Assembly: GCA_054600435.1 (NCBI GenBank)
Contig: BAAIJX010000029.1
Location: forward strand, 1 to 64,000
Reading direction: 5' to 3'
Source of the DNA: Neophaeotheca triangularis
Taxonomy: Eukaryota
Length of the DNA: 64,000 bases
The notes below the pieces were generated by a model that was given only the letters and a program-made list of their open reading frames with translations, did no database searches and was not told the DNA's origin. A program made the translations under genes and the position numbers. Of this stretch, positions 25,781-46,066 are shown piece after piece (within the stretch, counting starts at the first letter, position 1; every line of letters starts with the position of its first letter).

Positions 25781-27061
25781 TCAAGGTGTCTCTGTTGAGG
25801 GCGACTCGGTCTGCGACTGCTCCTCGGACATTCTCCTATGCTCGCACGCTGCTAGTGCAAGACTGTTGAGACCATTGCTGAGACCTGGAGAAGGGTAGGA
25901 GTAGTGAAGGGTATCAATGTCGCCGGTCATCGGCGCCGGCGGGGGCACGTACTCGAGCGAATTGGTGAAGTTTGAGCGATGGAGCGGCGGTCGACCAGTC
26001 GTGCCAATGACGGGCATCGGCATCGTCGCAATTGGGCCGGTGTCCATGCCGTTGATGAAGTAAGGTCCTGAAGGCGGCAGCATCATAGTTTGGTCTAGTA
26101 TCGGCTGAGGCTGCTGGATCTGGTGTTGAGGAGGCTGCGACTGGTGGTGCGGTTGCGGTTGCGGTCGCGGTTGTTGGGTCTGTTGAGCTTGTTGCTGCTC
26201 AATCTGAGCTTGCGCCTGCGCGGCTTGAGCTTGTTGCTCTTCTGCTTGTTGCGCAATGACCTCGGACAGAGACTCGGGCTTTACAGATGAAGCCTTCTTG
26301 GTCGACGAAGCCTTGGTGGGCTTCTTCACCTTTGCGTCTTCACTACTGCGCGACGGACCGCGACCGTTCTGGTGGGTTCTCCGGTGTTGTTCCATGTTGT
26401 CCTTGCGCGTAAAGGCCTTGTTGCACTCCGGACAGTATGCATCCTTCTTACCGGTGTGCTTCTTTGCGTGTCGCGCGGCATGGCCAGATGTGGTGAAGAA
26501 GTCGGTGCACCCAATCTGCTTGGCCATGGGGCATGGGTAGTGGTTCTTCTTCTGCGGCACCTGGGCGTTACTCGTGTTCGAGACGGCGGACATGCGCGAC
26601 GGTTCGGAAGACGGTGAGGTCGACTGTCGTTGCATTTGAGGTTGCGGTGGTAGTGGTGTCATCTGTGGCATCATGTGAGGCGGCATGGGGTAGGCAGTCG
26701 GCATGGCGCCAGTCGCGTCGGGAATGGGCGGATACATGGCGTCGTTGGGGTCTTCCATCTTTTGGTGATGGTAGTGGTGGTGGTGGTGGTGACTGTGAGG
26801 AGAGTGGAGAAAATATTGCTGGTGTTGCTTGGGGAGTTGGGCCAGGTGGGCGGCGGCGTGCTGGTCGAAGGTGCCCGCGGAGGATGGCGTCAATGGCGAG
26901 GGGGAAGCGAGACGGCGCGAGTCGCTTGACGAACTTCGAATGAGCTGTGGCGTTTGTGGGGAAAAGCTGGGCGAGGACGAGTCGCTGCTGTAGTTGGATG
27001 AAGTGCGCGAAAAGGTCGTCAGGCGCGGAATCGAGTGCTGTTGGTGATATCGCAGTTTCGA

Positions 27062-27117
<56 letters not shown>

Positions 27118-27208
27118 CCTGGCGGTATTGGTGCTGGGGAGTTGCAACGTCACTACTGTCGTTGAGTAGTGAAATCTTGCGGCCGCTGCAATTTTTACCG
27201 TCCATCAT
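25781..27208 (-). CDS. C2H2 zinc-finger transcription factor, Nrg1-like (two fingers, polyQ/His tracts)
   Basis: CPMAKQIGCTDFFTTSGHAARHAKKH-TGKK-CPECNKAFTRKDNMEQHRRTH; the FTTSGHxARH and F-R-DN recognition helices resemble Nrg1. Low-complexity Q/P/H regions. Confidence 0.88.
27062..27115 (-). repeat. (CAGCAA)n hexamer repeat encoding polyQ (18 Q)
   Basis: Plus strand is (CTGTTG)n; lies in frame within the C2H2 TF. Confidence 0.9.
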
Positions 27209-30200
27209 GTGAAAGCCACCCAGCTTGCTTGGGCGCTTTGTCAGCTGAGAGGAATAGGCTCTACAGGCGGCCTATTGTGTGGTGGAGTGCAGTAGCAGGC
27301 GCGATCGTCAGACGGTGCTGGCGGATTGGTGTTGCTGCTGGTAGTAGTGCTGCAGTGCTTCGGGCACAGAGGGTGTTGTTGGTAGTGTTGGTGGTGTTGG
27401 TGGTGTTGTAGCAGAGACAAGAGACGGCTCCAGACACTGCGCGTGGATGGGCGAGGAGAACCGGGCTGTAAGTTATTATACTAAAAGACGACAGCCTCTC
27501 GGACAAGGGACGACCAAGGTTACAGTCCGGTACAGGGGGGAGGAGGTGAGTATGGTATTATTATTGCCCACATGGTGCTAGGAAGCGGGAGGCCGAGGAG
27601 GGAAGCTTGGTCGAACGCTGGAACTGGCAGACCCTTGATATGCTGCGACAGCCGACAGAAGAGGACCACGGGTAGTCACTACTGGTAGGTAGTAGGTACT
27701 AGTATAGGTACAGTAGTAGGCTTGATGCAAGAATGCAATGCGGCTTGGCCCCATTGGATTATTGGCGAAGCCGCGTGCTTCCATGGGACGGACCATGGAC
27801 CATGGACCATGGACGATGACTTGACCATGGCAAGCGGATGCAAGAATGCCATCCTGCTGCATCTGTACCCTGTACGATACTCGATAGCGTCGGCACGCGA
27901 AAGTCTTGGGCTGATCCACCCAACTTAAACTGCCCCTAGCGTCCACCGCCCCGGCCTCATCGCCGATGACCCTGCATGCGTTCGAGTGCACAGGCGAGCT
28001 TCTTTTGCCTCGTCAACGGACCTTGCTCCCCCTCCAAACCCCCCTCCCATCCAACACCCCGCTCCCCCCCCCCCCCCCCCTTTCTGCTGGCAGAGGGCGC
28101 ATACTCTATCGGTATGGACAACAACAACAACAGCAGCAGCAGCAACAGGGCGACATCCATTCTGTTGAGCCACAGCTACGACAAGCAGTCTTCGCAGATG
28201 TCGAGTAATGCCATGCATCGCCATCTCCGCTGTGTTTCACACGGGGCGGTCTAAGGCAGCAGCAGTGAGGGCTAAACCGCGGAGTTTTGCGCTGGCAACC
28301 TGTCTTTTCCTAGTGCATCAAGCGATCGAGAGAAATGCGCTACACAAAAATTAGCGAACTATGAGCTCTGTGGCTGACCTTTAATTCGGGGCTGCCTCGC
28401 GATAGCTGCCCTGGTCAGACGCTTTCTGCGGTGACCCAGTTGAGCATCAGGCGAGCCCTGCTTTTACCACCTTTTGGTGGCTTTGATCGAAACTCTATGC
28501 TTAATTTGCAGGCGCCTTTTGCATGATACGATGCCTATCGAGTAGGTGGTACACTGGTACGTTGTCTCTTTAGAACCTCCCTGTGGTGCAGGGTTTTGCC
28601 TTCCATTTGCGAATCCAGGCGACGGTGACGGTGGCCACTCCGCCGCCTCGCGTCGTTCTGTCTAGAAAGACGAAGAGGGAGCTGTCTCCGCATGCGAAGC
28701 TTGCCATATCGGCGGTGGTGTTAGCCACACATGAACTAGGTACAGACACCTTTCTGTGAGCTCCAGGCTGACCTAGCGCGCTCTGCTCAAAGTTTGTGAT
28801 AACCCCTCTTCTCGTTGAGCAGTAGCAAGCTTTGCTTTGAGTTCGCTTTGATTGCGAGTAGTCCCTGGATACTTTACCCCAGGGGCCAGAACCTCGCATC
28901 ACAAGGCTGTCGGCACCACGGCGCAGAAATTAAATAGCGTTTCCATGTCGCATTCGAAACTCGCGTCGCGAGAAAACCTCATACACAGCAAGTAGCGCGC
29001 TCCCGCAAGGTGGTTTGCCAGTTATCTAGGCGTCGCTTGTTGTGGCCACACTACTCTCTTTCGCATTGAAAACGTATTGACAGAATGCAGGTTTCGGCGA
29101 CCGTTGTGATGCCACAGACCCTGGTCCCAGCAACTTGGTCAAGCGCCCGCGGGCTGCCGCCATAGTCTTCGGCTCACCTTTCTCTAGGTAGCCATCCGCC
29201 GCCGGGTCCTGCGGGTCGGCGATGGAGATTAAACGTGGCTCGCTCGGCCCCAGTCTGTCACTCACAGCACTGTCGATCCGCGGGATGCGCTCGATAGCCT
29301 GTCTGCAAATGTCATACCCGCTTCAGCCAATGACATCCCTGCAGCTATCGTGCCTTATGTGAGTAATCTTCGATCTGAGTCTTCTACCGCGGAGCAGGTG
29401 CCATTCAGCAGTGACGTCTCCGTCTCCGTCTCCACTAACAATCTCCCATGGTCTGACACCACGATATCAGCGGTACCTTTGTAACCCCTGTCGGCCTCGT
29501 GGCCGATTCAGGAGCGACAGGGCAGCGACGTTACCGCCACTTGCGCAATAAGGGGTAGCCACAATCGCTGCCACCGAAGACCCTCCCAAACGGGCACATC
29601 TATCTTACGCCGAGCACCTGGGACCGTCGGCATCACGAGATAGCGTAGTAGTCAAGGAAGTGTGTGGAGGTTAGTATGGATCGCGCTCGCTTCGAGCACT
29701 GCTATCCAATAGTGCGCGGGAACGACCAAGGTATCTTTAGTAGCAGCATCTGAGAACGACTTCTCGAGGAGGCCGTAGAGACACGTAGAGGTCTTTGGCC
29801 TGCGTGAAAGTTCGCATACGTGCCTTTGCTTTGTCGCCGCTGCGGCGAGGCGGCATCGACGTTATGGTGACGCCTGTTCCTAAGAAACGACGTGATGGCT
29901 ATCCGAGCGCATCCGGCGCGAAGCCCAAATGATCTTTGGAAAATCACGGGCTCGCCAAAGATCCCGTTCGGTTCTCGAGCTAGACCAGCTCGTTCTCTTT
30001 GATTGTTACAGTCTTCTGCAACACTCTTCGCAACTGTAATAATCATCTAAGGCTGAGTGCCATCCTGGATAACGGGCAAAAGTATGAGCAAACGCCAGAC
30101 GGGCCACGGCTGAGAGCTGACTCGTGGCAGACGGGGGGGGGGGGGGGGGAAGGTGGGTGTTTGTTAGCTTGTGCAGGAAAATAATTAATAATGCCATACA

Positions 30201-31466
30201 CATCGGCGATCGTGAGAAAGTAGAATTTCCATGCCGCTCCACCCCTGACCGGCGGCCGCCGCTTGGCCGACGTGAAGATACTTTCTGCAATAATATTTTC
30301 ACCATCAGCTGGGCAGCGCAGGTTTTCCCTGTAAGCTCTCAAAAAGGCATGCCGCCAGATGGGAAGATTTTGGGTCGAAAGATGCACGAACAGGAACCCC
30401 GCTTTGATTGACGAGCACAGCAATATTACGCGAGGCGCGTTTTCTTTTTCGAGTAGTAAGACTATCCCCATCCACTGCTCTTGATATCGTTCGCAGCGTT
30501 CCTGCGATGCGCTCGTAGCAGACTCGAAGCCGTCTCGCGTCGGAGGCAGCTCTGTCAGCCCCCCAAAATTCACGTGTCACTGCTGGACCAGCACGAGATC
30601 ATACAATCATCGATACAGTCGTAGCCTTTTGACGGAGAGTCCAGACATCCAAAGAACTCTCTCTGGATGCACAAACGTTGCACCCGCTGACCTGTCTACC
30701 CTGAATCTCTCCAGGGTGGACACACTTGGATCGCTGTGATCGCTCCCGTTATCTTGGGGATCAGCGGTCGCAAATGCGCCAGCTTTCTGCAGGGCAAGGG
30801 GCCGCGTTGAGGCTTTCGAGGGATCATCCAACGCTGTGGCTCAGGGAGCCAGGGACGTCGGAGCCAGGACCGTCGCCGTCGACCGACCGTCCTCCGAGAT
30901 CTTGAGGGGACCTCAAAGGCTCGACCTTGAGCCTCGCCCAAGAAGCCTCACCATGTGCTCTTTTGAAGAAAGGTCAGCGGACATCCATGATGTTTTTGCC
31001 GCCGGATTCCACAAGCGTCACGTATCATGGAGTGTCTGTAAGTGAGCAGTCAGACCTAGTCTACATCTCACTCGCAAAGTATTAGCAAACACCAGTCTCG
31101 TCTACACGGTGTTGAACCTTGTGCAGACGGATCGAGCCATGTACTGTAGATGCGATGCAAGGAGGCAGCCATGCTGATCGCTTCTTGAGAGAAGAACTAG
31201 GGAGGTTTGATTGATATTGACGCCTCCCGCCATCTTATTAACTCTACCGTATGCAGTAAAGCGAATATCGTGATTGAGATGGTGTAGTTGGCGGAAGGCA
31301 GGGCAGGCCCAGCGACCAGATCTTGGCACATGCCGTTATCTCGTCTTATCGTAATCGTTATCTTAGCTTTATCTGCAATCTCTCGTTCAAAATCTCGAAC
31401 TTCACAAGCTACTAGGTAGCTGCCTTATTTCGTCCACATAACCTCACAAACAGAATCGCCGACACA

Positions 31467-32426
31467 ATGAAGGTCGGAAAACCCAAGTCAAAGAGAACGC
31501 CCACTCGTCTGCGGCACAAGATTGAAAAAGCTTCAAACGCAAAGCAGAGGAAGGAGCGCAAAGAAGCGAAGAAAAACCCACAATGGCAATCACGACTAAA
31601 GAAGGACCCGGGTATTCCAAACCTGTTCCCGTTCAAGGCAAAGATGCTTGAAGACCTTGAAGAAGGCAGGAGGCAGAAGGAGGCTGAGACACAGCGAAAG
31701 CGGGAGGTCGCCAAAGCGCAAAGACAAGGACTTGCGGTCGCCGATGCAGACGGCGGCGCTAAGATGGCCGAGGCTGACGACGACGAGTTGGTGGATGATG
31801 CGGAAGACTTTGGTAGTGACGATGAAATGGATGAGGGCGATAGCAGCAACCCTATGGCTGCTCTGCTTGCCTCGGCGCAAGCTAGGGCACAGAACTTCCC
31901 TGAAGCGGAGGATTCAGAAGAGGTCGATGAGTCTGACGAAGAGGAGGGAGGCGCCGTGGTTGGCGTAGACAAGGCCGGGTCATCCGCGCCAGGTCAAGCG
32001 ACGAAGAAGGCTCTACCCAAACAAGCGCTGGCGGATCCCATCAAGACAGTATCGAAACTCGTCGACCGCATGCAGCAAGTTGAAGGTGGTGTCGACGCGA
32101 TGCTGAACCACTACAACATCCCACCGCTTGTCACTGCCGGAAGCGACCTCAACACTCGTTACCTTGTCGACGTCGCCAGGAAGACCGGTCGGTTGGGCAA
32201 GGGAGGAGTACCAAATTTGCACTCGGCAGCCCTGACGGTGCTCACGGACATCAACGAAGAGCGACTAAAACTGCCGGTACCGGCTCAGAAGTCGCGAACG
32301 ACTGGGAAAGGGGAGGTCCAGATTGTTTCGCAAATGGCAGAGCCATTCAGCATCGAAGGCCTGTTCGCCAACCCCGGAAAATCCTCTTCTGCCGGTACTG
32401 GTGGTGCCATGGTTGTCGACTCATGA
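31467..32426 (+). CDS. NUG1: Nug1/Grn1/GNL3 (nucleostemin-family) pre-60S factor lacking the central GTPase domain
   Basis: The N-terminal SKR..RLRHKIEK...KKDPGIPNLFPFK (GN3L/Grn1 domain) and C-terminal VARKTGRLGKGGVPNLHSAA are recognisable. No DARDP, NKxD, GxxNVGKS or DxPG motif occurs anywhere in the 319 aa. Confidence 0.88.
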   Translation: MKVGKPKSKRTPTRLRHKIEKASNAKQRKERKEAKKNPQWQSRLKKDPGIPNLFPFKAKMLEDLEEGRRQKEAETQRKREVAKAQRQGLAVADADGGAKMAEADDDELVDDAEDFGSDDEMDEGDSSNPMAALLASAQARAQNFPEAEDSEEVDESDEEEGGAVVGVDKAGSSAPGQATKKALPKQALADPIKTVSKLVDRMQQVEGGVDAMLNHYNIPPLVTAGSDLNTRYLVDVARKTGRLGKGGVPNLHSAALTVLTDINEERLKLPVPAQKSRTTGKGEVQIVSQMAEPFSIEGLFANPGKSSSAGTGGAMVVDS

Positions 32427-33493: not shown

Positions 33494-36400
33494 TTATTTC
33501 ATGGGCGGATCTCGTACGCTGTGCCAGCGCATGTTGAGCACTTCCGGACGATCAGTCGGTCCCTCCAAACCTGTCTCGGTATCTGTATCGAGGCTGGCAT
33601 GGATACCTTCGGCATCGTACACGGCGCCGCTCTCGTAAGACGGCGCTGCACGTCTGGTGAGCCTGGTGTTTTCCGCCAGAAGCACATCGTCGACATCCCC
33701 CAACTTATGTGCATCGTTGCGCGCTTGGTTTCTGAGTTCCAGGTGTACTATGCCTTCGTACCGAGGGACATTGCCACGGGAGCCTTCGTTCGCAATCGCT
33801 GGCGGACTTGGGCGGACTGCTTCTGCATCGAGATGAGTATCCGTTGTCGCTTCCTCTGCATCTGGAGTTGGGATAGCATCTCTTGGCTCAGACTCATCGT
33901 GACGCTTCCTGGCATTCGGTCCACGCCTAGTGTAGCGAGAGTGGTCTTCAGACACCAAAGCCCTCTTTCCAGAACCAGCCCTGGGCCCATCTTTCGAACC
34001 AGTCTTGTCTGCTTGCGGTGCCGGCTTCCACTCCTTGAGATCAACAACGCTACCAATTCCACCAACTGGATACAACTGGCGGATCTTCGCAGCATCCCCG
34101 GCAGAAGGACGTGATTCGTGTACATTTCGAGCGCCGCCTGGCCAAATACCTCGCTCACCTTCGGGCGCGTGCTTGCGAGAGATGATATAATAAGCCTCGT
34201 TGTCCGGGTCGCCGTCATGCCGAAGCGAAGGATAGTGCATAATGGAGTCATAGTCGTATTCTTGCGACCACTGATAATCTGTCAGGTCCGATGCTTCATC
34301 GAGACAAGTGTACGGGATAGCGGCGGGGAAGAGCCGTCGTGCGCTTGGATGTTTTCTCGCCCTTAACAAATCCCAGTTAGTATGTTAAAAGCGAAGAAAG
34401 GGGGACAGGGGAGGGCGGGCTTTCACTTACATGTCCATTAGCTCGTCCCAAGAGCCCTCAAAGCGAATGCGTTCCACGGGACTCTTCACCTCGGGGGCCA
34501 TTGCTTGGCTCGCCCCCGAGCCTTTTAAAGCTTCTGTACCAACGCCTTTGGTCTTTCCTTTACCGAAGACGATCGGACCGCTGTTTTCAGAGGGCAAAGT
34601 GCCACTGCCGCCCTCGAATTCTTGCACGGCGTTGTCGATCAACTCTCCAAAGGCCACCGGGACATGTATCTCTTGGCTCGTGGGACGAAGTGGCTTCAGC
34701 CGTGGCGGCATCGGGGAATTGACCTCTTCTGGGTCCTTGTACGTCCTCATTGCTCGTTCGAAGGCTTCTTGGTAACCGACGATGTTCCAAGGCTTGTATT
34801 CAATGAAATTATCCCGGTCGGGTCTCTGATGTTCATGACGCAGTCCCATCACGTGGCCTATGATCACCGTTAGCTTTTCGAGCTTGAAAGTATCAAGGAG
34901 AGCACGCAAATAGTGGGATACACACCGAACTCGTGAATTGCAGCTTCGACGAGAGACGCTGCCCCCCTGTTAGACATCTTATCAGCCAATCTACAAAGCT
35001 CCATGATATGTTGATCATCCTTTATGTCGTAGCGATAGCCATACGTCGCTAGGGGGATACAGGCCTCGGAAAAGTTCCACTCTAGCGAATCTGGCTCAGC
35101 GTCGTCTTTGGATACATCACGGATTTGTAAAGCGTCCAAGGAAACGCCCGTGCTGCCGCAATATCTGTAGATGTCGCCTCTGCATCCAGGGTCGAGTATT
35201 ATCTCAAGGCTCGTGCTCGCTTTTCCCACTGTGTCAAGCCAGATCTTGATAGCCTTTCGAACGGTTTCGTCCAGTCTCAGGGCTGAGCGCCTGTCGACAT
35301 AACAATAGCGGATCCTCTGTGAAAGTTCTCCATTTGCTGGGGGCCAAGGCCCTATTGTTCGATCGCCTTCTACTCTGGGCTGATCTCCCGAGATTTTGGG
35401 AGCTGCGAGAGGGTGAATGCCATGCCAACGCCGCGGCAAAGGGAAACCCGCACCTTCTGATCTAGCATCCGATGGAGCGCGACTGCCCACTTTAGAATGC
35501 TGTTGATCATCTGGGCGGATGTTCCCGAGCGGTTCGTTCAGGGCTTTCGCTCCGTGTCCGCTCGTACTCTCGTCGACGTCAGATGAATCTCCGGCTCCGG
35601 AGGGTGAAGAATCGTCGTCGGAGGGAAAGTAGGGGCTTGTGACAGATTCCTCCGCCTCACTGTCACTACAGTACACACTCGGCGCTGCGCCCCATCGGGC
35701 CATGGCCACCGCATCCGTAGAGCCTGACTTGGGGTACATTGCCACCAGTCTCGCAATGTCCCCTTGGGAGACCTTCATTTCGCTGGGTTTCCGGGCCCCG
35801 CCTTCCCAGACCGGTTCTTCCGTGCCTTTGCGTTTGATGATGAAAGTCTTTGGGTCAAGTTCCTGGTCGCTTTCGCGCTCGGGCATCAAGATTGAGCTGT
35901 ATAGCATGATCGAATCGTAGTCGAACTCCGTCGAGTATATCTTGTGCCGGCTATCCTGAGCATCGAAGGGCTTCCAATCTGTAAGAGCCAGGAAGCCGTG
36001 GCGAGCGGCAAAATCGATGTCTTGAGTCCTGTGCAGTGTCAGCGCGGAGCAAGCGCCGATGGTAGTCTCCATGTCGGCTTCGTGACTGCCAATGACTGGG
36101 GTTCTTACATTTTCACCTCTATTTCTTTGATTGGCATTGATTTGCACTCCTCAGACCGCTTTGCCGCATCCAAAGCATCCGCGTAGTCTCCTAAAACTTT
36201 GTAGTTGAAATCGAGGAAAGACTCGGCGTCTGGTCGTTGATGTTCGTGTTCCAGTCCCATGGCGTGGCCTGTCGCTCCGAAGTCTGATTAGTCTTTGTGC
36301 ATTTGTTTTGCTAGGAGCCTTCAGCCTGGCTGCCGAGCGTACTCACCAAGCTCATGAGCCATCACTGCATTCTTGTAAGTCTTGCTTATCAGACTCAAGG

Positions 36401-37088
36401 CGCAGAACTCGAGCTGATTCCCCCAGTCCTTGGTTGTGTAGCCGAGAGAAGTGGATTGGTAGCACTCGGGACTGTTGTTGAAAGCGTCGTCACCTGGTCG
36501 TGATATATCTCGCAGCATGAGTGCATCGTTATTTGCGGCTTGGGCGCAGAGACAGCGAGGATCGCCGTTGCACCACTCGTCTACCTCGATCTTCAACGAG
36601 GTGAGTCTTGTCGCGGGCTTCCATAGCTCAAGGGCTGCGGAAACAATGGGCTCAAGCCTGTCGGCGGAGTCTGCATCGAAATAGCAGTATCTGAGATATA
36701 CAGATCGATCTTGATCGCTCTTCATTTCATCTTTTGACGATGGTTGGCTTGGTCCCTTATACTGCTCGTGCTCAGTGCCTTCTTCCTCCTTCTCGCCCCT
36801 TCCGAGTTGAGCCTTTTTCCATTCATCAGTCTCTTTCCACCATTCGCCGGCTTTCAGATACGCTGGCCAGGTATCTTTGTTACTCCAGCTAGTCCTCTCC
36901 TGAGAGGTTTGTATGCTGTGCCATCGCTTGTCCTGACTGTGGCAATGCCGGGCCTGCGAGGATTCTTTGTTCTGAGTGGATTCAATCGAATTCTGCTGCA
37001 GTGAAGGTGCAAGTTCCGTATAGGCTTTACCTTCGGATCCCAGCACAAGGGCGAGGCAAACCACAAGGTATAAGATAACGCACCTCAT
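33494..37088 (-). CDS. Secreted tandem astacin-like (metzincin, M12A-like) metalloprotease, 5 exons (37088-36347, 36268-36109, 36028-34926, 34857-34431, 34361-33494), ~1099 aa
   Basis: Signal peptide MRCVILYLVVCLALVLG. Splicing restores HELGHAMGLEHEHQRPD and HEFGHVMGLRHEHQRPDRD, with Met-turns DYDSIMLY and DYDSIMHY. Exon lengths sum to 3300 nt with the frame kept at all four junctions. Confidence 0.85.
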
Positions 37089-37986: not shown

Positions 37987-39780
37987 TCACATCGCCCCAT
38001 CCGGCGCCATACCTCCAAAGACCGGGATATCAGCCGTCAAAAAATAGTTCCAATCAAACTCCGGGTTATTCAAAAAGTCCAAATTCCAGTCCTCACCGCT
38101 CGAAGTCGTCATGGGCGTTCCGTCGACCTGTCCATTCATAACACCACCACTCGGTGGTCCCACGCCAGGGAGTTGCGACTGCTGCGCCTGCAGCGCAACC
38201 TCTTGTTTCAGATTCTCCGGGTGGGGATCGGCTTCCGCGCCGTCTTTGCGGAGGCTGAGACCTAACACGGATGCATCTTCGTCTTTCTTCTTTTTGGAGA
38301 GACGGATGAGGAAGCGTGCGGTTTTGAGAGCTTCCTTTAGAGCTGGTGTTGGGAAGCGGTTGACGACTTCTTCGAGGGTGCGGATCGCCGTTGAGACGTG
38401 CTGTAAGCTCTCTCGTGTGTCCATGGCGAGGAGCACGCAAGTCATTTGGAAAGGGACGTTCGCAACGTGCCACCAGGGTTGTCCTTGATGCACCATTTTT
38501 CGTGAAGCTTCGAGGCCTCTGTGGCCGATGGTTATGATGCGGTTGAGCGTTTCAGTAGAGAGTTGCGGGTTTGTCAGTCGTAAGCGGCGGAAGGCGCAGA
38601 GTGTGAGATTGGCTTTTGAAAGCATGATGGCTTCGTGCCGTGTCTCTTCTGCTTCCATTGCTTTGAGAAAGTCTTCAAGCTGGTCCGGCTGGTCGGAGCG
38701 GTCGGGGTCGAGACAGCATGATTGACTGTAGAGATGTATGAAGTCTGTCGTGAAGTCGCTGTCGCGCGGAGTGGGCAGCTGGGAGGTGATGCCACGTAGT
38801 GCCACGCGTGTCCTGCCATATTCGAAGGATACCCAGCTATTGAGCATCCGAGATATCCAGAAAGTGCGCCGGCGGAGCTCTGCGTCGTTGGTGTGGTCCG
38901 ACACTGCCGGGAAGATAACAAGATTGGTAGTTTCTTGATGCAATCCTAGTGATTCTATGAGGTGCATGGTAACACTGGTAGCCATCCAAGTAGCATGAGG
39001 ATGATCTGTAGATCGCAGATACATCACTCGTAAAAGCCATGAGGCGACATCATTGACGGTCGGCGGCTGCATCATGCTACAGCTTTCAAGAGCCATCTTT
39101 GCGGAATTGACCAAGCGAGGTATAGCCGTGGCGAGCCCGAGATCATGCTCGTTAGCGAACAGATAACCCAGCGAAGCCACTCCGCAAAGCATATGATCAG
39201 GTATCTTGACAATGTCCGGTCGGGTCCAACGCAACACCATCTGATCCACGACCCATTTCTTGTCCAGAAATCCATACAGGGGATGGACGCTCTCGAAGTA
39301 GACGTTAGCCATGCGTCTCATCTGCTCCAGTGAGATCAAGTCGGTAATAGGCGGCACAACGGAGAGCGAAGGCGTGCCACTGCCAAGATTCCAGCCAAAA
39401 GTGAAAAGCTTGGGCCCAGAAGACGGATCCAATCGCATGCCGAGTAATCTTGTGAAAGCGATACCTGAGTTGGCCTCCATGGACCGCAGCTGCTCCTGAT
39501 CCTGCATATCGCGGTCCTCGACTGGTGCTGCCTCTCCTTTGATATGAGTTTCAGGAGGCGCGATACCGTTCAGGTTCGCATCGGTCTCGACGATTTTGGA
39601 GCGTTTCCGAGGATGCTTTTCGTAGTAGCAGGTGTACTCGAATTGCGTACACATGTTGCACGGGTTACCACTGTCGCATCTTCGCTTACGCAGCCTGCAT
39701 GGCTCGCAAGCTTGCTTCGCTCTTTGACGCTTCTGACTCGGCGGGCTTTGGGCCTCCTGGCCGTATGCTGGATGATTCAT
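37987..39780 (-). CDS. Zn(II)2Cys6 transcription factor, Rdr1-like
   Basis: ACEPCRLRKRRCDSGNPCNMCTQFEYTC binuclear cluster; MEANSGIAF..LG...PKLFTFGWN, YFESVHPLYGFLD and RRRTFW..SFEYGR middle-homology region. Confidence 0.92.
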   Translation of the reverse strand: MNHPAYGQEAQSPPSQKRQRAKQACEPCRLRKRRCDSGNPCNMCTQFEYTCYYEKHPRKRSKIVETDANLNGIAPPETHIKGEAAPVEDRDMQDQEQLRSMEANSGIAFTRLLGMRLDPSSGPKLFTFGWNLGSGTPSLSVVPPITDLISLEQMRRMANVYFESVHPLYGFLDKKWVVDQMVLRWTRPDIVKIPDHMLCGVASLGYLFANEHDLGLATAIPRLVNSAKMALESCSMMQPPTVNDVASWLLRVMYLRSTDHPHATWMATSVTMHLIESLGLHQETTNLVIFPAVSDHTNDAELRRRTFWISRMLNSWVSFEYGRTRVALRGITSQLPTPRDSDFTTDFIHLYSQSCCLDPDRSDQPDQLEDFLKAMEAEETRHEAIMLSKANLTLCAFRRLRLTNPQLSTETLNRIITIGHRGLEASRKMVHQGQPWWHVANVPFQMTCVLLAMDTRESLQHVSTAIRTLEEVVNRFPTPALKEALKTARFLIRLSKKKKDEDASVLGLSLRKDGAEADPHPENLKQEVALQAQQSQLPGVGPPSGGVMNGQVDGTPMTTSSGEDWNLDFLNNPEFDWNYFLTADIPVFGGMAPDGAM

Positions 39781-40240
39781 TCTGGGTTCAAAGATGGGTA
39801 GGGCTGACTCTGCTACTTGAGTATCTGAGTTATGGATGACCTGCTGTGGGACGTTTTGTTGTAGCCCGCAGCATATCAGTCTTTCGAGTAACAGTCAACA
39901 TCAGGAAGGCACGCTGGAAGGTCGTTGGAAGCACTTCGACGCCTTCCAGCGGTAGTGGGATAGAGGCAAAGAGGAGAAAGCGCTTGCTTACCCCAATGCG
40001 CTCTAAAGTGCAACCTCGAGTTGCCGACCCCACATGTGGTCAAATTCAGCCAATCGGCACCACGCGTGTTCGGCCGACCGACCATCAAGCTTTCCCGAGT
40101 CCAACATCACCTGCACTGAACTGAGTCTCAAAGAACACCAATTATGATCGATTAAAAGTACAATGTTGTACTGATACACTATCCGCAGCGCATTGGGTAT
40201 CTATAGTAACACAATAACCTCCACGCCCGTTTGCTCGAAC

Positions 40241-43200
40241 CTACAAATATGCCAAACCCCCACCCCCGATAATCTCCAGATCGCTCCTCAAGCCCCAGGC
40301 ATCACCACCAGCTCTGCCCAGTACTTCGGCTCTGCGCGCAGACCCCAGCTCGCTGATTCTTTGGATAATACCTCCGTCAATAACGCCTCTAGCGCCTAGA
40401 CCCTCGCCGTCGGCTGTCCTGTAAGCGCGCGGATTGAGGCCGGCGGGGTGCTCGAGAATAGAGGTCAAGTGCGTTTGCAGAGCACCGAGGCGTCGGTAAG
40501 TGCCTTCATCGAGGGGCGTCACCAAGCCAGCGGCACCTGATTGGAAGGTCATGAGTACGTGGAAGAGAGAAGAATCCTGGTGCTCTGTATCGCCGTTCGT
40601 ATTGCCATTGGTCATGGGTTGGTCGGTGAAAGGTGCCAAGGATGAAGGCACCAAGTGCATGCTCGTAGGGAAATGGCCCAGGTGGAAGGTGCTCCTATGC
40701 AACAGTCGCGAGCCCGAAAGACTTTTGGGGTTCTCCGGATCGTACTGAAGCACGTGCAAATCCATGTCGGCGTCGATGATAAGAATGTAAAGCTCGCCGT
40801 CATATGGGAGAAACTCGGCGGACATGATCTCCATTGTCGGCCGACTCTTACCAAGAACACTGAGCTTGTAAGGCTCTTCTGTGAACCCGCCGAACCACAA
40901 CCCCTTCCAAGCATCACCTGCCATCCATAGCCCGCTTTTTCCGAGCGTCTTGAGAGTCGAGGTATATGCCTGGGCATCTAGGAAGGCCACTGGAAGGCAG
41001 GACCCTTCTTCGCGAAGACCACGTATCATGAGCTTCTGTCCTTGTGCAATGCCGACCAATCCGTAAGGGAAAGACTCCAGAGTCGTGACTGGACCCTTGG
41101 TCTCCTCACGGGCAACTACGCTGAGCTTGACACCAGTCTCGGGCATGTCAGGTTCCGGTACTACGTCAAGTACCTCAAAGACTGTCAAGAACCCTTTCGT
41201 GGGCAGATCCTCACCGCGGTGAACAGCCGATCCAACTGCCACCCGCAAAGCCTTTTCGCGCGAGTGCTCGGACACCTCGAGTGTCATTACCTTCAACGAA
41301 GTGACGATCTCTGCGTAGGGCATGGGAAACGAGTGCAAAAGCTGGTGCGATTTGCCGGACAAGAGATGCAGCGTGTACTGTTGTATCTGAGGATGAAGGC
41401 CTTCTTCTTTGCGATAGTCAGCAAGGGATGCTTAGCCAGCCATCGCGTGCAAATGTCGTAGTGTATGTTTCCCCAAGAATAAAGTTGAGCCTGGATGAAG
41501 TGCCAAGCGAAACTGAATAAGAAGGATGTTTTGATCTAGCATCAACTATAGACGTCACTCCACTGAAAAAGGAGGAGACGTATATGCTCGTGATGCAACA
41601 GGTGTGGATGAATGTTGGGGGAAATCAAACTTACCATTTTTGTCCGGAAGAGGTCCGTCTTCTTCAGACGGGAAGTAGTCAACATTTCTACACGACGCAA
41701 CGACATGAAGGTGTCTATCCTCGTGGTAAGAAATGTGCTGAACCTCCTCTGGCGGGTTGCCAAGCTGCGTCTTATGTACAGACCAGCCGGTGCCATACTC
41801 AGTGTCTTGAGGAAGTTTGCACTCTTGAAGCTGCCCTTCCGAGTTGAGCAAGGTGAAGTCAGCGCTTGAGTCAGCCCAGTGTACAGGCGTCAATGATTGC
41901 GCCTTTTCGCATTCAAGTGCCAGCACTTTTGGAAGGCTGTCGGCTTCCCGAAGCATGAGCGAAGCTGCAGCACCCGGCACTAGGACCGCGTTATGGCCGG
42001 CGACTTCGAGCGCTCGCAACGATACATTGTTACCCTCGGCCTCCTCGGTTGATGATTCGTCGTATTTCGGAAGGTAGTTGAAAGGCACCTTGCGGAAACG
42101 CAGATCTTTCGTCCAATTGGACCTATCAGCGCTGGAAAATGAAGGGTATCGGAAGGGTTCGTAAAGGGTGAGATCGTCGCTGGCGCTGCGCAATATCATA
42201 TACGGCGACTCGAAACCAGTAGGGCCGAGATCAGCCACCAAAACCTCGGTGAGCGTCTCTTTGGCTCCAAGGCGTCGTTGAGTCGAATCTTGTGAGATTA
42301 CAGGCGGGAGATGGGTCACGTTGGGCAACGAGCAATAAGGCGTAAGCTCGGGCAACTTATATAGCTGGAAAGCGCCCTCAGGCCCAAGCATGAAAGCAGC
42401 CGTCTCGTTGAACGTCAAAACGCCCGAGTACAAACATGCACTCAGCCATTTCGTGCTAGCAAAGTCGTTGTTCGGCTCGACCATTTCAAGTTCGCCGCTC
42501 TTTTCAGCTTTGAGGACCTGTACGCTGCTATCGTCTCGTAGTACGAGCATGTAGGGGTCGCAGAAGGAAGCATGTAAGATCTTAAGCTCGGCATCCGTTT
42601 CGTCGTCGGTCATTGGGATCATCTGAACAAGGCCCAAATTGTGGTCGTATGTGATTATCTCAGTGCGTCGGCACTGCACGATCTGAGTGCCATCCGCTAG
42701 CGTGCTGATAGCAAGAGTTTCACCATCACGCTCGAACTCAGTCCCCGTGCGCTCGACGAACTTCGAGGAGGTACTTTCCGTTTCCTTCTGGTCATCTCTC
42801 TCGCCAGCATTAAGATCATATACTTTGGTAACCTCGCCGTCATATGCGAAGAAGAGATTGTCGAACAGGGCGACAGGCTCATCAGAGTCCTCTGGCTTAG
42901 GTCGGGCACAAATACTCCACGTGCCTCGTGCACTTGGCATTTTCCTGCTGTGTGTAATTTGGGGCGTGATCTCTTTGCTCATGAAAGTAAGCCCGCTAGC
43001 ACGACCCCGGCCGGTTGCTGCGACGAGCTTAAGCTTGTCTCCGTTCCTCCCAGACTTAGTAAAGGACATGTCGTTGATGGGACCTGCCGACAGCAGTGAG
43101 TCCAGAACTTGGAATCTGTAGGCAGTAGAAGCTTGAGGGACTGAATGGTCTGGAGATTGCTCTCTTTTCATTGACGCTGCAGTGTTCGCATACAAATCAT

Positions 43201-44611
43201 CATCTTCGTCTTCTTCCGACGAAACATCTGCGTCTACATCCGCGTTTTCCGTTGTCATTTGAGCGTGCGAGCGTTTGCGGCTAGGCTGTTGCGTTGATCG
43301 CGTCCAGCCAACGAGCTTTGAGTCACCGTCTTCGCTGCCAATGAACACCTTCGCGTCGTCGAGCATGGCCGTGCAGGAAGAGGAGCTATCAATCAAGTGG
43401 CCCCCATTCTCGGCCTGGACAGGCGCGAGGCGAAGTCCGCCTACATTTCGTCCAGCCAAGTTGAAGCTAAGCGTTACCAGAGATCCATTGTCGAGGCTGA
43501 TAAGCATGTCACCAGATTCAGCACCAAGATGTTCGATTTGGCATCTTTCAAGCTTCAGGCCGAGGACGGACTGGTCTGTGAGAGTGAAATTGGTGGCCTG
43601 CTTCGCAAATTCGTTGACAGCGACACCGGTCGTTTTACCGCCTTGATCGACATGGATCAACTCGTTGGCACCAACCAGAAGGACACCACCAACTGGGAGC
43701 GGAAGTGGTACCGCTCTCCACAAGTCCGAAGGGAGGTTTGGTACGGAAATGAGGCCGGTAGAGGCTCGTTGGTCAAGATCCAGTGTAATGACATGGTAGG
43801 TCAGGCAGTCTTTGCGTTCCTCTAGCAGGGCGCTGGACGGCACCACTTCGCTCGACAGTACACCGAATGTGGGTTCTCTGTACTCGTGCAAAAAAGCAAG
43901 GTCCACAGGGTGCTTGAACGCGGGGTCTAGAGCCGTAAGCGGTAGAACAAAGGATGACTTGTATGGTGTCTGCCTCGCCTCGCTGTCCGCCTCGTTTTGC
44001 TTCCCATGCGCGTCCTTGCTTTTTGGCGCACCAGAGTCCGGCGCGTCTGTCATCTCTGCGTCAAACCCTGCGTCCTCGCCATCGGCTAGCAGCTCATCTC
44101 CCAGCTGTCTGAACGGTAATATTGCCAAGTGTCGTTGTCCGAACTTCAGCGCGGCGCATCGTGAACTGGGATCGACCGAAAGGATGCTGGAGCAGTCGGT
44201 CAGGGCGGGCCCAAAGGGCTGATTGATGATGTTTTCGCCCTCATAGTAGTGGATCGATATGGTACTGATACGATGGTTCTGCGGATCCCATTCCACAAGA
44301 GACAGTCTGGCCTCTCGTGTAGCTACCAGCAGAGCCGAGCCTCCTGATTTGCTGTTAAGAGTCTTTACGCTGGAGAGAGCTGTGACGGTGCCCGAGAGAG
44401 GGTATTCCCCTATCAGAACCAGCTTGCAATGAACGCTGAGAGCACTAGCACCATTGCTCTTGTCCGATTGGCCATGGTCGTTCTGCAACGCGAAGACTTG
44501 TAGCAATGAGGTCTTTGCTACTACGAGGTTCTTCGCTTGGCCATGCAGAAACGGCAGAGCTACAGCGTGAGTTACTGCCGTCGATGGCAGCAGCTCAGTA
44601 TAGCACTGCAT
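40241..44611 (-). CDS. CFT1: Cleavage and polyadenylation specificity factor subunit CPSF160/Cft1, 2 exons (44611-41635, ~41406-40241)
   Basis: MQCYTELL..TAVTHA, ISTISIHYYE, FLHEYREPTFG, QYDPENPKSLSGSRLL..TFHLG and GLNPRAYR motifs. Intron has a GTAAGT donor at 41634, a GCTGAC branch point and an AAG acceptor near 41407. Confidence 0.95.
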
Positions 44612-46066
44612 TATCTCGATGGTTCACTGTTGTCTGGGCATCGAGGTTTCATTGCGGCGGGAATAGCACAATTCAAGATACACCTCACGTTTGGAGCTCG
44701 CAAACCTCCCATGTCAACCTTACCTTGCCTTCGAATAAACGCGACTTTGGCCGAAGCTTTACCGGGCGCCAAGACTAGCGAGAGCGACTACACCCCGTGA
44801 ACTTCATCTCGCCGATGTCCCCAACTCTAACTTAGAGGCTAGCTGTACACGGCTCCTGCGAAGAGGACCTGTTGCCATCCATCAAGCCTCTGTGGATCAA
44901 TATGGAAGCAGTTGTTTCTCGCGCGCTTACGAAGATTTGTCGCACTTCGCTTCAGGCTGCCAAAAAAAAAAAAAAAAAAGGCGATCTTTGTGAGGCCGCC
45001 TTCATGCACCTCAGCTGGTGGTAGGGCGTCATTTCAGCTCCAAAAGGGGCAACCAATCTTGTTCATTTATCTACAGCATGACATTGATCCTGCGTCCTAA
45101 TGATCTTGGCTTACTTTGAAGGGCTCTATTGGATGTTTTTTCACCGGTCGGTCAGCTATCCAACAGCCTTGCATAGACCGGTCAACTGTTGTCCAATGGT
45201 CCGCCATCTCAAGGTCTCTCTGGGGCTCTTTAAGAGGGCATTGCGGCTCTGCACTGAGATACTATAAGTTCAACACCTTCGAAAGATGCTCCAACCTTTC
45301 ACACCCTCCCGCCGCATCGCACTCAATCACACCGCTCGCAACAAAATGTTATACAATTTGGTGCCACTCCAGGTTAGCAATCATCACTGTTCACCACCAG
45401 AGAGATTCACGCTTTGAACCACCACTGCACTGAGCACGCGATTTGAAAATTGGCAGCCGTACGTCCGACAGAACTCGCAAGGGCCGGACTTGGGGACTCT
45501 ACTGCTGACACGCTTTGATGATCCAGTGACAAAAGGGACACCGCCGATGCGTGATGAGCTTGGACGGAAAGTCTGCCCGAGAACCTTTGCTAGCCTCAGG
45601 ACCTGCCCCAGTTGCCTGAGGATTCCCTCAACTCGAGTCTGGACCTTGACAGCGCACGAAATATATGCATCAGTGCCCATGTCCAGGCAAAGATGGGCGG
45701 TCTTGAGGAGGTCGAAGGGCGGCTTCGGTTGCCTTGTCACGTGACATATTTCTGATTGGCCGCCCTTGGTGAAGTAATGAGGGTGCCACAAAGGGCGACC
45801 GATAGGGTCTTTCTCTAAGACCTGGGCAGACAAGAATTTTCTCAGAAGGCAGGCACGCATGCAGGGAGTACTCGAGCTCGCCTACCAACGGACCTCGATG
45901 TGTTGCGAGGTGAGCGCCGATCACCTTGGGCCACCTTCTCACCTAGCTACCAAGTCCTTCCATCGCCCCGCTTGAAAAGTTCCCTCTCCCCTCTTATCAG
46001 GCTGAGCACTTTTTCTGTGTCTATGTAGCTAGCACAGACTCAGCTTTTCAGTCAACTGTCGCGGCA

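Follow-up and report, generated by a model that had tools for sequence, protein, structure and literature searches.

A spliced gene of Neophaeotheca triangularis encoding two astacin-like domains in one predicted secretory precursor

Gene structure at the locus

The stretch of DNA analysed here, hereafter the window, comprises 64,000 nucleotides (nt) from the fungus Neophaeotheca triangularis (contig BAAIJX010000029.1, positions 1 to 64,000, assembly GCA_054600435.1). On its minus strand lies one spliced gene encoding a chain of 1099 amino acids (aa) with two astacin-like domains (Table 1). The five exons splice in frame into 3300 nt (1099 codons and a stop), and all four introns are bounded by GT and AG, are 68-80 nt in length and contain branch-like sites that read CTAAT, CTGAC or CTAAC and resemble CTRAY. 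Introns 1 and 3 interrupt the zinc motif at the same position in the two domains, following HE[LF]G in phase 1, and introns 2 and 4 are located at equivalent positions, in phase 2 upstream of the Met-turn. Exon 3 is a single stop-free frame that leads from domain 1 into domain 2, and the open reading frame (ORF) fragments of relatives stop just past HE[LF]G, matching the position of introns 1 and 3. An earlier, sequence-only reading of the window had joined several ORF fragments and a 160-nt exon into one gene, and this model was borne out: the spliced product is identical, letter for letter, to residues 550-1648 of the public record GAB7363491.1 (hypothetical protein MBLNU230_g3762t1, 1648 aa; P0088 among the sequences examined here), which derives from N. 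triangularis (order Neophaeothecales, Dothideomycetes). An independent annotation therefore made identical choices at all four junctions and arrived at one chain with both domains.

The first 549 residues of GAB7363491.1 correspond to the upstream Zn2Cys6 transcription factor. This record begins within the zinc cluster; in it Pfam finds Fungal_trans only, whereas the full transcription factor ORF has both Zn_clus and Fungal_trans. It exits the transcription factor frame 8 codons ahead of that gene's stop, treats 919 nt (38012-37094) as an intron ten times as long as the other four, and would put the signal peptide of the protease in the middle of the chain. Because of these four features, we read GAB7363491.1 as a chimeric gene-merge artefact. 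A TATAAAG sequence is present at 37181-37175, within the 919-nt interval and ~90 nt before the protease ATG. The accessible portion of the genome announcement of the strain gives neither an annotation method nor RNA-seq (PMC13064199).

Table 1. Coordinates of the two-domain gene, its parts and the genes around it in the window
Feature	Positions	Strand	Description
Whole gene, ATG to stop	33494..37088	-	5 exons, 4 introns, 1099 aa
Exon 1	36347..37088	-	Predicted signal peptide (~residues 1-20), propeptide, KR54-55, N-half of domain 1 through HELG
Intron 1	36269..36346	-	78 nt, GTGAGT..CAG, phase 1, within zinc motif after HELG
Exon 2	36109..36268	-	160 nt, begins HAMGLEHEHQRPD
Intron 2	36029..36108	-	80 nt, GTAAGA..CAG, phase 2
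Exon 3	34926..36028	-	C-half of domain 1, acidic linker, RR500-501, N-half of domain 2
Intron 3	34858..34925	-	68 nt, GTGTGT..TAG, phase 1, after HEFG
Exon 4	34431..34857	-	HVMGLRHEHQRPDRD and low-complexity insert of ~80 aa, domain 2 only
Intron 4	34362..34430	-	69 nt, GTAAGT..AAG, phase 2
Exon 5	33494..34361	-	Met-turn and C-half of domain 2, charged tail, stop at 33496-33494
Dibasic site 1, K54-R55 (QDKR)	36924..36929	-	W56 next, at 36923-36921
Zinc motif, domain 1, HELGHAMGLEHE	36243..36356	-	Residues 245-256, split by intron 1
Met-turn, domain 1, DYDSIMLY	35899..35922	-	Residues 337-344
Segment between domains	35434..35730	-	Residues 401-499; C-terminal extension of domain 1, then acidic Ser/Pro/Gly-rich linker
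Dibasic site 2, R500-R501 in L-P-R-R	35428..35433	-	W502 next, at 35427-35425
Zinc motif, domain 2, HEFGHVMGLRHE	34832..34935	-	Residues 666-677, split by intron 3
Met-turn, domain 2, DYDSIMHY	34232..34255	-	Residues 847-854
Charged tail	33497..34066	-	Residues 910-1099
Third R-WHSV motif	33515..33529	-	Residues 1089-1093, ten residues ahead of the stop
Zn2Cys6 transcription factor ORF	37987..39894	-	Upstream neighbour with its own stop; outside the gene, merged in the public model
CPSF-A/RSE1-like gene	40241-44623		Neighbour
Grn1 GTPase gene	31416-32426		Neighbour
C2H2 protein gene	25781-27271		Neighbour

Astacin-like identity of the two domains

The order of parts along the chain is a signal peptide (the N-terminus, MRCVILYLVVCLALVLGSEG, reads as one by inspection), a pro-piece of ~35 aa, KR, domain 1, an acidic linker, LPRR, domain 2 and a charged tail. 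That the chain contains two complete domains of the astacin/metzincin type, as the sequence-only reading had proposed, was confirmed. Pfam PF01400 scores 82.7 bits on P0088 in two stretches (gathering cut-off 22.5 bits), and each domain keeps 19 of the 20 columns that are invariant in the family, the exceptions being H171 (N in domain 1) and A98 (T in domain 2). Domain 2 also keeps 14 of the 15 near-invariant columns. The two zinc motifs are HELGHAMGLEHEHQRPD at residue 245 and HEFGHVMGLRHEHQRPD at residue 666. With respect to the extended motif HExxHxxGxxHExxRxDR, domain 1 reads HELGHAMGLEHEHQRPDAES, in which the final R-D is changed to A-E, and domain 2 reads HEFGHVMGLRHEHQRPDRDN, which is complete. 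The Met-turn SxMxY with its Tyr zinc ligand is present as SIMLY (residues 340-344) and SIMHY (residues 850-854), in columns that are invariant in the family alignment. No zinc ligand is missing from either domain, and both also retain the catalytic Glu, the Met-turn Tyr and the Glu that follows the third His; with these catalytic residues intact, neither head looks dead.

Identity between domains 1 and 2 is 36% in an alignment of 170 columns and 33% in one of 162 columns. Because the two halves align at E values of 6e-23 and 2e-13 and homologues exist, their similarity is not a matter of chance. Six strings had previously been listed as shared between the domains; four of these are exact, and the other two are present with miscounted spacing and should read TSL.I..D..C.GD....C and W.GGAR.......S.GD.A.....YP. 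The earlier assignment to peptidase family M12A stands with respect to motifs and Pfam score, with the qualification that, because the Pfam match is confined to the surroundings of the zinc site and the Met-turn, the subfamily appears to sit at the divergent edge of M12A.

A family profile built from 18 relatives and searched against the PDB (E ≤ 0.01) matched 23 sequences, of which 20 belong to the astacin family (BMP1, TLL1, hatching enzymes, astacin, meprins, myroilysin and LAST-MAM) and three are archaemetzincins; a phmmer search of the PDB with exon 3 returned chance matches only. Evidence on the fold is indirect and was obtained with an AlphaFold2 (AF2) model of a relative, P0010, whose identity to domain 1 does not exceed 34%. 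The P0010 model has a mean predicted local distance difference test score (pLDDT) of 77.6 and a predicted template-modelling score (pTM) of 0.82. It gave 29 PDB matches at E ≤ 0.001, and all among the matches listed are astacin-family structures, with target-normalised TM values of at most 0.72.

Relatives of the two-domain protein

We searched 1.84 billion representatives with exon 3 using HMMER (E ≤ 0.001), which matched 82 representative clusters. This query runs from the C-half of domain 1 through the linker into the N-half of domain 2, and a fused-junction query of this kind favours fused forms. All named members are Dothideomycetes (Cercospora, Zasmidium, Pseudocercospora, Hortaea, Oleoguttula, Meristemomyces, Cryoendolithus, Rachicladosporium and Recurvomyces), their UniRef names being 'Metalloendopeptidase' or 'Peptidase M12A domain-containing protein', and they are otherwise single-domain proteins of ~330-530 aa. 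A survey of domain copy number among homologues, which had been suggested in the sequence-only reading, was run on these clusters. Matches to the N-half followed by the C-half, the order of an ordinary single domain, were found in 24 of the 82; a further 28 matched the N-half only and 26 the C-half only, as fragments would, and in four the C-half preceded the N-half or one stretch ran over both halves, as expected of a fused junction.

Exon 3 protein had no match among longer database proteins. This null result arises because the 1648-aa record sits in a cluster with a 425-aa representative, and long forms can hide in this way. A search of proteins of 922-2630 aa with the family profile found no two-domain members of the subfamily in that range, which excludes lengths of ~710-921 aa; its 13 matches at E ≤ 1e-5 comprised two basidiomycete giants alongside tolloid-like and bacterial M12 proteins. 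The nearest clusters in the ESM Atlas are single-domain Ascomycota astacins of 341-375 aa.

A basic-pair/Trp junction before each domain

The two junctions of the window protein, QDKR/WHSI and LPRR/WHGI, are located exactly where they had been placed from sequence alone (Table 1), and both align with R38/W39 of the family. In the 18-sequence alignment W39 is invariant and R38 is at least 90% conserved. Among 81 relatives we scanned for the motif W[YFHIL][SGA][VILM] located before the first core strand, [YF]C[FY]. The Trp motif was found 28-46 residues before this YC strand in 42 relatives, the other 39 being mostly fragments that lack an N-terminus. At P1, immediately ahead of the Trp, 41 of the 42 have Arg, and P2 is Lys in 28, Arg in seven (making 35 dibasic) and Pro in five. 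P4 is Leu, Val or Ile in 33. Elsewhere in the relatives, [KR]R occurs at a background of 0.0074 per position.

In annotated full-length relatives the junction takes the form [KR]R/W[YFH][SG][VI] behind a signal peptide and a pro-piece of ~15-20 residues. Because it is placed just behind these two elements, we interpret it as the predicted family-wide pro/mature junction, and its form fits the specificity of Kex2. The Kex2 motif, as given in the available text of PMC8528282, has an invariant P1 Arg with Lys or Arg at P2 and an expanded LxxR form. In the manner of Kex2 pro-domain-processed (K2PP) secreted proteins, defined by a disordered pro-piece that follows the signal peptide and ends in KR/RR or LxxR, residues ~21-55 of the window protein end in QDKR, and the internal junction reads LPRR, both being predicted sites. 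Each domain had been said to start right after its dibasic pair. This holds for a Kex2-type site ahead of the conserved Trp and does not hold for the core, which begins 78 residues further on in domain 1, where a charged insert extends the distance, and 40 residues further on in domain 2 (28-46 in relatives).

Fused forms and the origin of the gene

The four clusters with a fused junction are P0006, P0046, P0068 and P0052. P0006, the only sequence returned by a search for near relatives with exon 3, is an ORF that is 96% identical to exon 3, with 13 differences in 367 residues, five of which fall in the inter-domain segment; the RRWHGI junction is unchanged. In P0046, P0068 and P0052, a C-half, a linker, KR/W or KR/F and an N-half are found within one ORF, and the internal junctions read AKR/WFSI, AKR/WFSL and SKR/FYSL. 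Immediately behind their upstream domain, P0046 and P0068 have a second site, PPGKR/S, as though the linker were meant to be cut out. The downstream domain of P0068, an ORF from a JGI/IMG contig, reads HRLG for HELG and has lost the catalytic Glu, and this head is a possible pseudo-protease. Judged from these matches, the fused architecture is rare and is not unique to this genome.

Phylogenetic placement of the two domains varied with the tree. In a joint tree domains 1 and 2 are sisters (76/89, with a long-branch warning). In trees that included one domain at a time, domain 1 joins a clade of Hortaea, Oleoguttula and Recurvomyces (95 in the Shimodaira-Hasegawa-like approximate likelihood-ratio test, SH-aLRT, by a quick method); the placement of domain 2, outside that clade, is weakly supported. 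In a tree of N-halves the two domains lie in different clades, and no fewer than two origins are required for the fused forms. The end branch of domain 2 is the longest, at 2.5-3.4 changes per column.

Family genes occur in pairs that are direct neighbours or no more than three locus tags apart in Cercospora kikuchii (CKM354_000964600/700), Oleoguttula mirabilis (LTR36_005920/5923) and Meristemomyces frigidus (LTR85_006335/6338), indicating a tendency to form local arrays. Because family members are neighbours in other genomes and the domains share both of their intron positions, fusion of neighbouring paralogues is plausible and is the likeliest origin of the gene.

Pro-piece, linker and tail

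The linker had been described as acidic and indeed contains 17 Asp or Glu vs 10 Lys or Arg (residues 400-512); the corresponding numbers for the tail (residues 925-1099) are 32 vs 25. Further KR or RR pairs had been reported in the tail and were located at residues 943, 956, 963 and 1047. The pieces between these dibasic sites are not repeats. The R-WHSV motif close to the C-terminus may be left over from a third unit, or it may be a pseudo-N-terminus that has a function. An unrelated family member similarly ends in GWYGVRESQ, and P0063 and P0145 were noted alongside the R-WHSV motif.

The pro-piece of domain 1 contains a lone Cys flanked by His in RHCHSQDKR (36939-36947, minus strand, residues 48-50), and a Cys is also present in the pro-piece of the relative P0009. 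Cysteine-switch latency is a feature of other metzincins, and by analogy this Cys could be a zinc-blocking 'switch' residue. Seven relatives (P0008, P0012, P0025, P0034, P0066, P0074 and P0077) end in tails that resemble endoplasmic reticulum (ER) retention signals (KRDEL in three, and RRDEL, DREL, KHDL and LSEL), several with a dibasic pair directly before DEL, which is odd for presumed secreted proteases. The C-terminus of the window protein is RDPPMK.

Genomic neighbourhood

A G+C content of ~54% and short introns across the window are of fungal character. In addition to the neighbours in Table 1, the window encodes a VTT-domain protein, an Fpg glycosylase and a NatA auxiliary subunit. These are ordinary housekeeping genes, and no protease or secondary-metabolite cluster was found in the 64,000 nt. 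Searches with family members by tblastn found no third astacin copy in the window.

Proposed processing and alternative explanations

We consider it probable, with some reserve, that this five-exon gene gives rise to a 1099-aa secretory precursor which Kex2 would cut into two secreted zinc endopeptidases. The chain would enter the ER co-translationally via its N-terminal signal peptide, two latent astacin-like domains would fold, and Kex2 in the late Golgi would cut after R55 and R501 and possibly also at the tail sites 943/944, 956/957, 963/964 and 1047/1048. Two zinc endopeptidases of different sequence would then be secreted, each with the Trp N-terminus of the family. The mature enzyme in the case of astacin has a buried N-terminus that forms a bridge to the Glu following the third His, and by analogy the new N-terminus might complete the active enzyme here. 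The linker segment before RR501 might serve as the pro-piece of domain 2 or might stay on as a tail of domain 1. The best available argument for cleavage at the internal junction is that a processing site has been kept where no signal peptide precedes it, in all four fused forms, and this gives good grounds to infer that the chain is cut. The analysis establishes how the gene is built, what its domains are, that their catalytic residues are intact and that the junction is conserved; secretion, cleavage and activity, as well as the role of the linker, are inferred.

Several observations weigh against this proposal. Dibasic pairs are also present inside both domains (residues 284, 366, 547 and 819), so that cleavage cannot be predicted from such a pair by itself. 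The N-terminal W segment of the P0010 AF2 model has a pLDDT of only ~40-55, and the signal peptide of the window protein was called by eye. Pfam aligns mainly profile positions 81-122, around the zinc site and the Met-turn, and single exon pieces score 12-23 bits. P0006, the only close relative sequence, is genomic with its introns read through. The 78-residue spacing from W to core in domain 1 is unusual, and domain 2 combines the longest branch of the tree with an insert of ~80 aa between its zinc site and Met-turn; these peculiarities of the two domains could reflect relaxed constraint.

If the internal RR/W were an uncut relic or a structural motif, the same fused gene would instead produce one tethered two-headed protease, an outcome that we regard as unlikely. 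Such a product would be consistent with the evident tolerance of dibasic pairs within folded domains, with the lack of confident structure at the junction in the P0010 model and with a linker that, unlike those of P0046 and P0068, has no second dibasic site right after domain 1. It would be harder to reconcile with an internal site that keeps the full Kex2 pattern (P1 Arg, P2 Arg, P4 Leu) and the invariant Trp even though the two domains are only ~35% identical, that has a dibasic counterpart in all four fused forms (4/4), and that lies in a long, acidic, low-complexity segment in which it should be accessible. It is less probable still that the fusion is real and one head, more likely domain 2, is decaying, such that the product is a single protease with a dead passenger or pseudo-protease. 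The long end branch of domain 2, its insert and the HRLG of the downstream domain in the fused form P0068 are all compatible with decay. Nevertheless, domain 2 keeps nearly all of its conserved columns (19/20 invariant and 14/15 near-invariant) with the zinc ligands, catalytic Glu and Met-turn Tyr among them, it has an intact frame, and the 96%-identical P0006 shows conservation of its core.

Alternatively, the gene model itself might be wrong, either because two adjacent genes have been misjoined or because the 1648-aa fusion of transcription factor and protease is correct; we consider this very improbable. Tandem but separate genes do exist in Cercospora kikuchii (CKM354_000964600 and CKM354_000964700), and NCBI does carry the 1648-aa model. 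At the present locus, however, ~100 codons without a stop connect the two domains, as they do in P0006, and no frame of the linker contains a signal-peptide-like start for domain 2. The 1648-aa model would require a start within a zinc cluster, a stop skipped 8 codons on, a 919-nt intron with TATAAAG inside it and a buried signal peptide.

Returning to cleavage into two enzymes, a broader and more tentative possibility, about which we remain doubtful, is that the protein represents a third class of fungal Kex2 substrates, namely 'poly-enzyme' precursors that give two different folded proteases per translation product. Under this interpretation the linker would be a built-in pro-piece or inhibitor of the downstream enzyme, and the C-terminal R-WHSV could be a pseudo-N-terminus with a regulatory role. 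Such precursors would have originated repeatedly by fusion of tandem astacin paralogues in Dothideomycetes, because the fused forms are not one clade in the N-half tree.

Comparison with known systems

The closest known proteins are the single-domain Dothideomycetes proteins named 'Metalloendopeptidase', such as CKM354_000964600/700, Zasmidium cellare PRZ48_003295 and those of Hortaea werneckii and Oleoguttula mirabilis. These belong to the same subfamily at 30-38% identity and share with the window protein a signal peptide, a short pro-piece, the [KR]R/W junction, the N-terminal elements WP and RYC[FY], the zinc motif HE.GH..G..HEHQRPD, the Met-turn FDYDSIM.Y and an intron after HE[LF]G. They have one domain in ~330-530 aa, whereas the window protein has two domains and a second, internal junction; unlike some of them, it has no KRDEL-like tail.

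With classical M12A proteins (crayfish astacin, BMP1/tolloid, meprins, fish hatching enzymes and myroilysin) the window protein shares the extended zinc motif with a Glu after the third His, the Met-turn Tyr and a predicted zymogen logic with an N-terminal pro-piece, and the modelled relative P0010 shares the astacin fold. In contrast to them, it shows ~15% identity and a longer N-terminal segment, and Pfam aligns the motif regions only. The distance from zinc site to Met-turn is ~85-175 aa here and ~45 aa in astacin. Activation would be by Kex2 and not by trypsin-like or furin-type enzymes. In classical members a single catalytic domain is joined to CUB, EGF or MAM modules, and they are not known to contain a second catalytic domain.

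Two basidiomycete giants, Steccherinum ochraceum EIP91_000940 (P0114, 2130 aa) and Artomyces pyxidatus BV25DRAFT_1296423 (P0118, 2061 aa), also carry more than one HExxH..HEH module per chain (two or three), and Pfam Astacin scores 67 bits on P0114 in two stretches. Unlike the window protein, they belong to another subfamily and have long non-protease C-terminal regions, and no N-terminal signal peptide or KR/W junction is evident when their sequences are read by eye. One module of P0114 reads HMFGH and thus lacks the catalytic Glu that both window domains possess.

According to the portions available of PMC8528282, PMC6339444 and PMC7329392, Kex2-processed repeat proteins (KEPs) and K2PP substrates are secretory precursors in which KR/RR or LxxR marks the separation of units or the removal of a pro-domain by Kex2. 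Read from its sequence, the window protein likewise has KR/RR or LxxR sites at its unit boundaries. Unlike KEPs, in which a signal peptide precedes many short and near-identical peptides with KR/RR on either side, it contains two folded units of ~400 aa that are ~35% identical, and it falls outside the KEP definition; unlike K2PP proteins, which lose one N-terminal pro-domain, it would be separated into two enzymes. It would thus work like a hybrid of the two classes with whole enzymes as its units.

The sequence-only reading had not recognised this architecture as one described in fungi. Likewise, among the papers listed by our searches, which covered literature outside subscription journals and supplements, none was seen to describe fungal proteins with several astacin domains or Kex2 poly-enzyme precursors of natural origin. 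Three other ORF clusters share the fused junction, and the protein is already present in NCBI as part of a chimera. The phrase 'astacin domains' in PMC3627010 was considered as a precedent for tandem domains and rejected, as it refers there to domain boundaries.

The analysis also flags the public gene model as mis-merged. Astacins are little studied in fungi, and our analysis defines a small, uncharacterised astacin-like subfamily with a recognisable putative activation junction. If the precursor is cut as proposed, it would be a natural case of a fungus secreting two enzymes 1:1 from one gene via Kex2, a design that is used deliberately in fungal expression technology.

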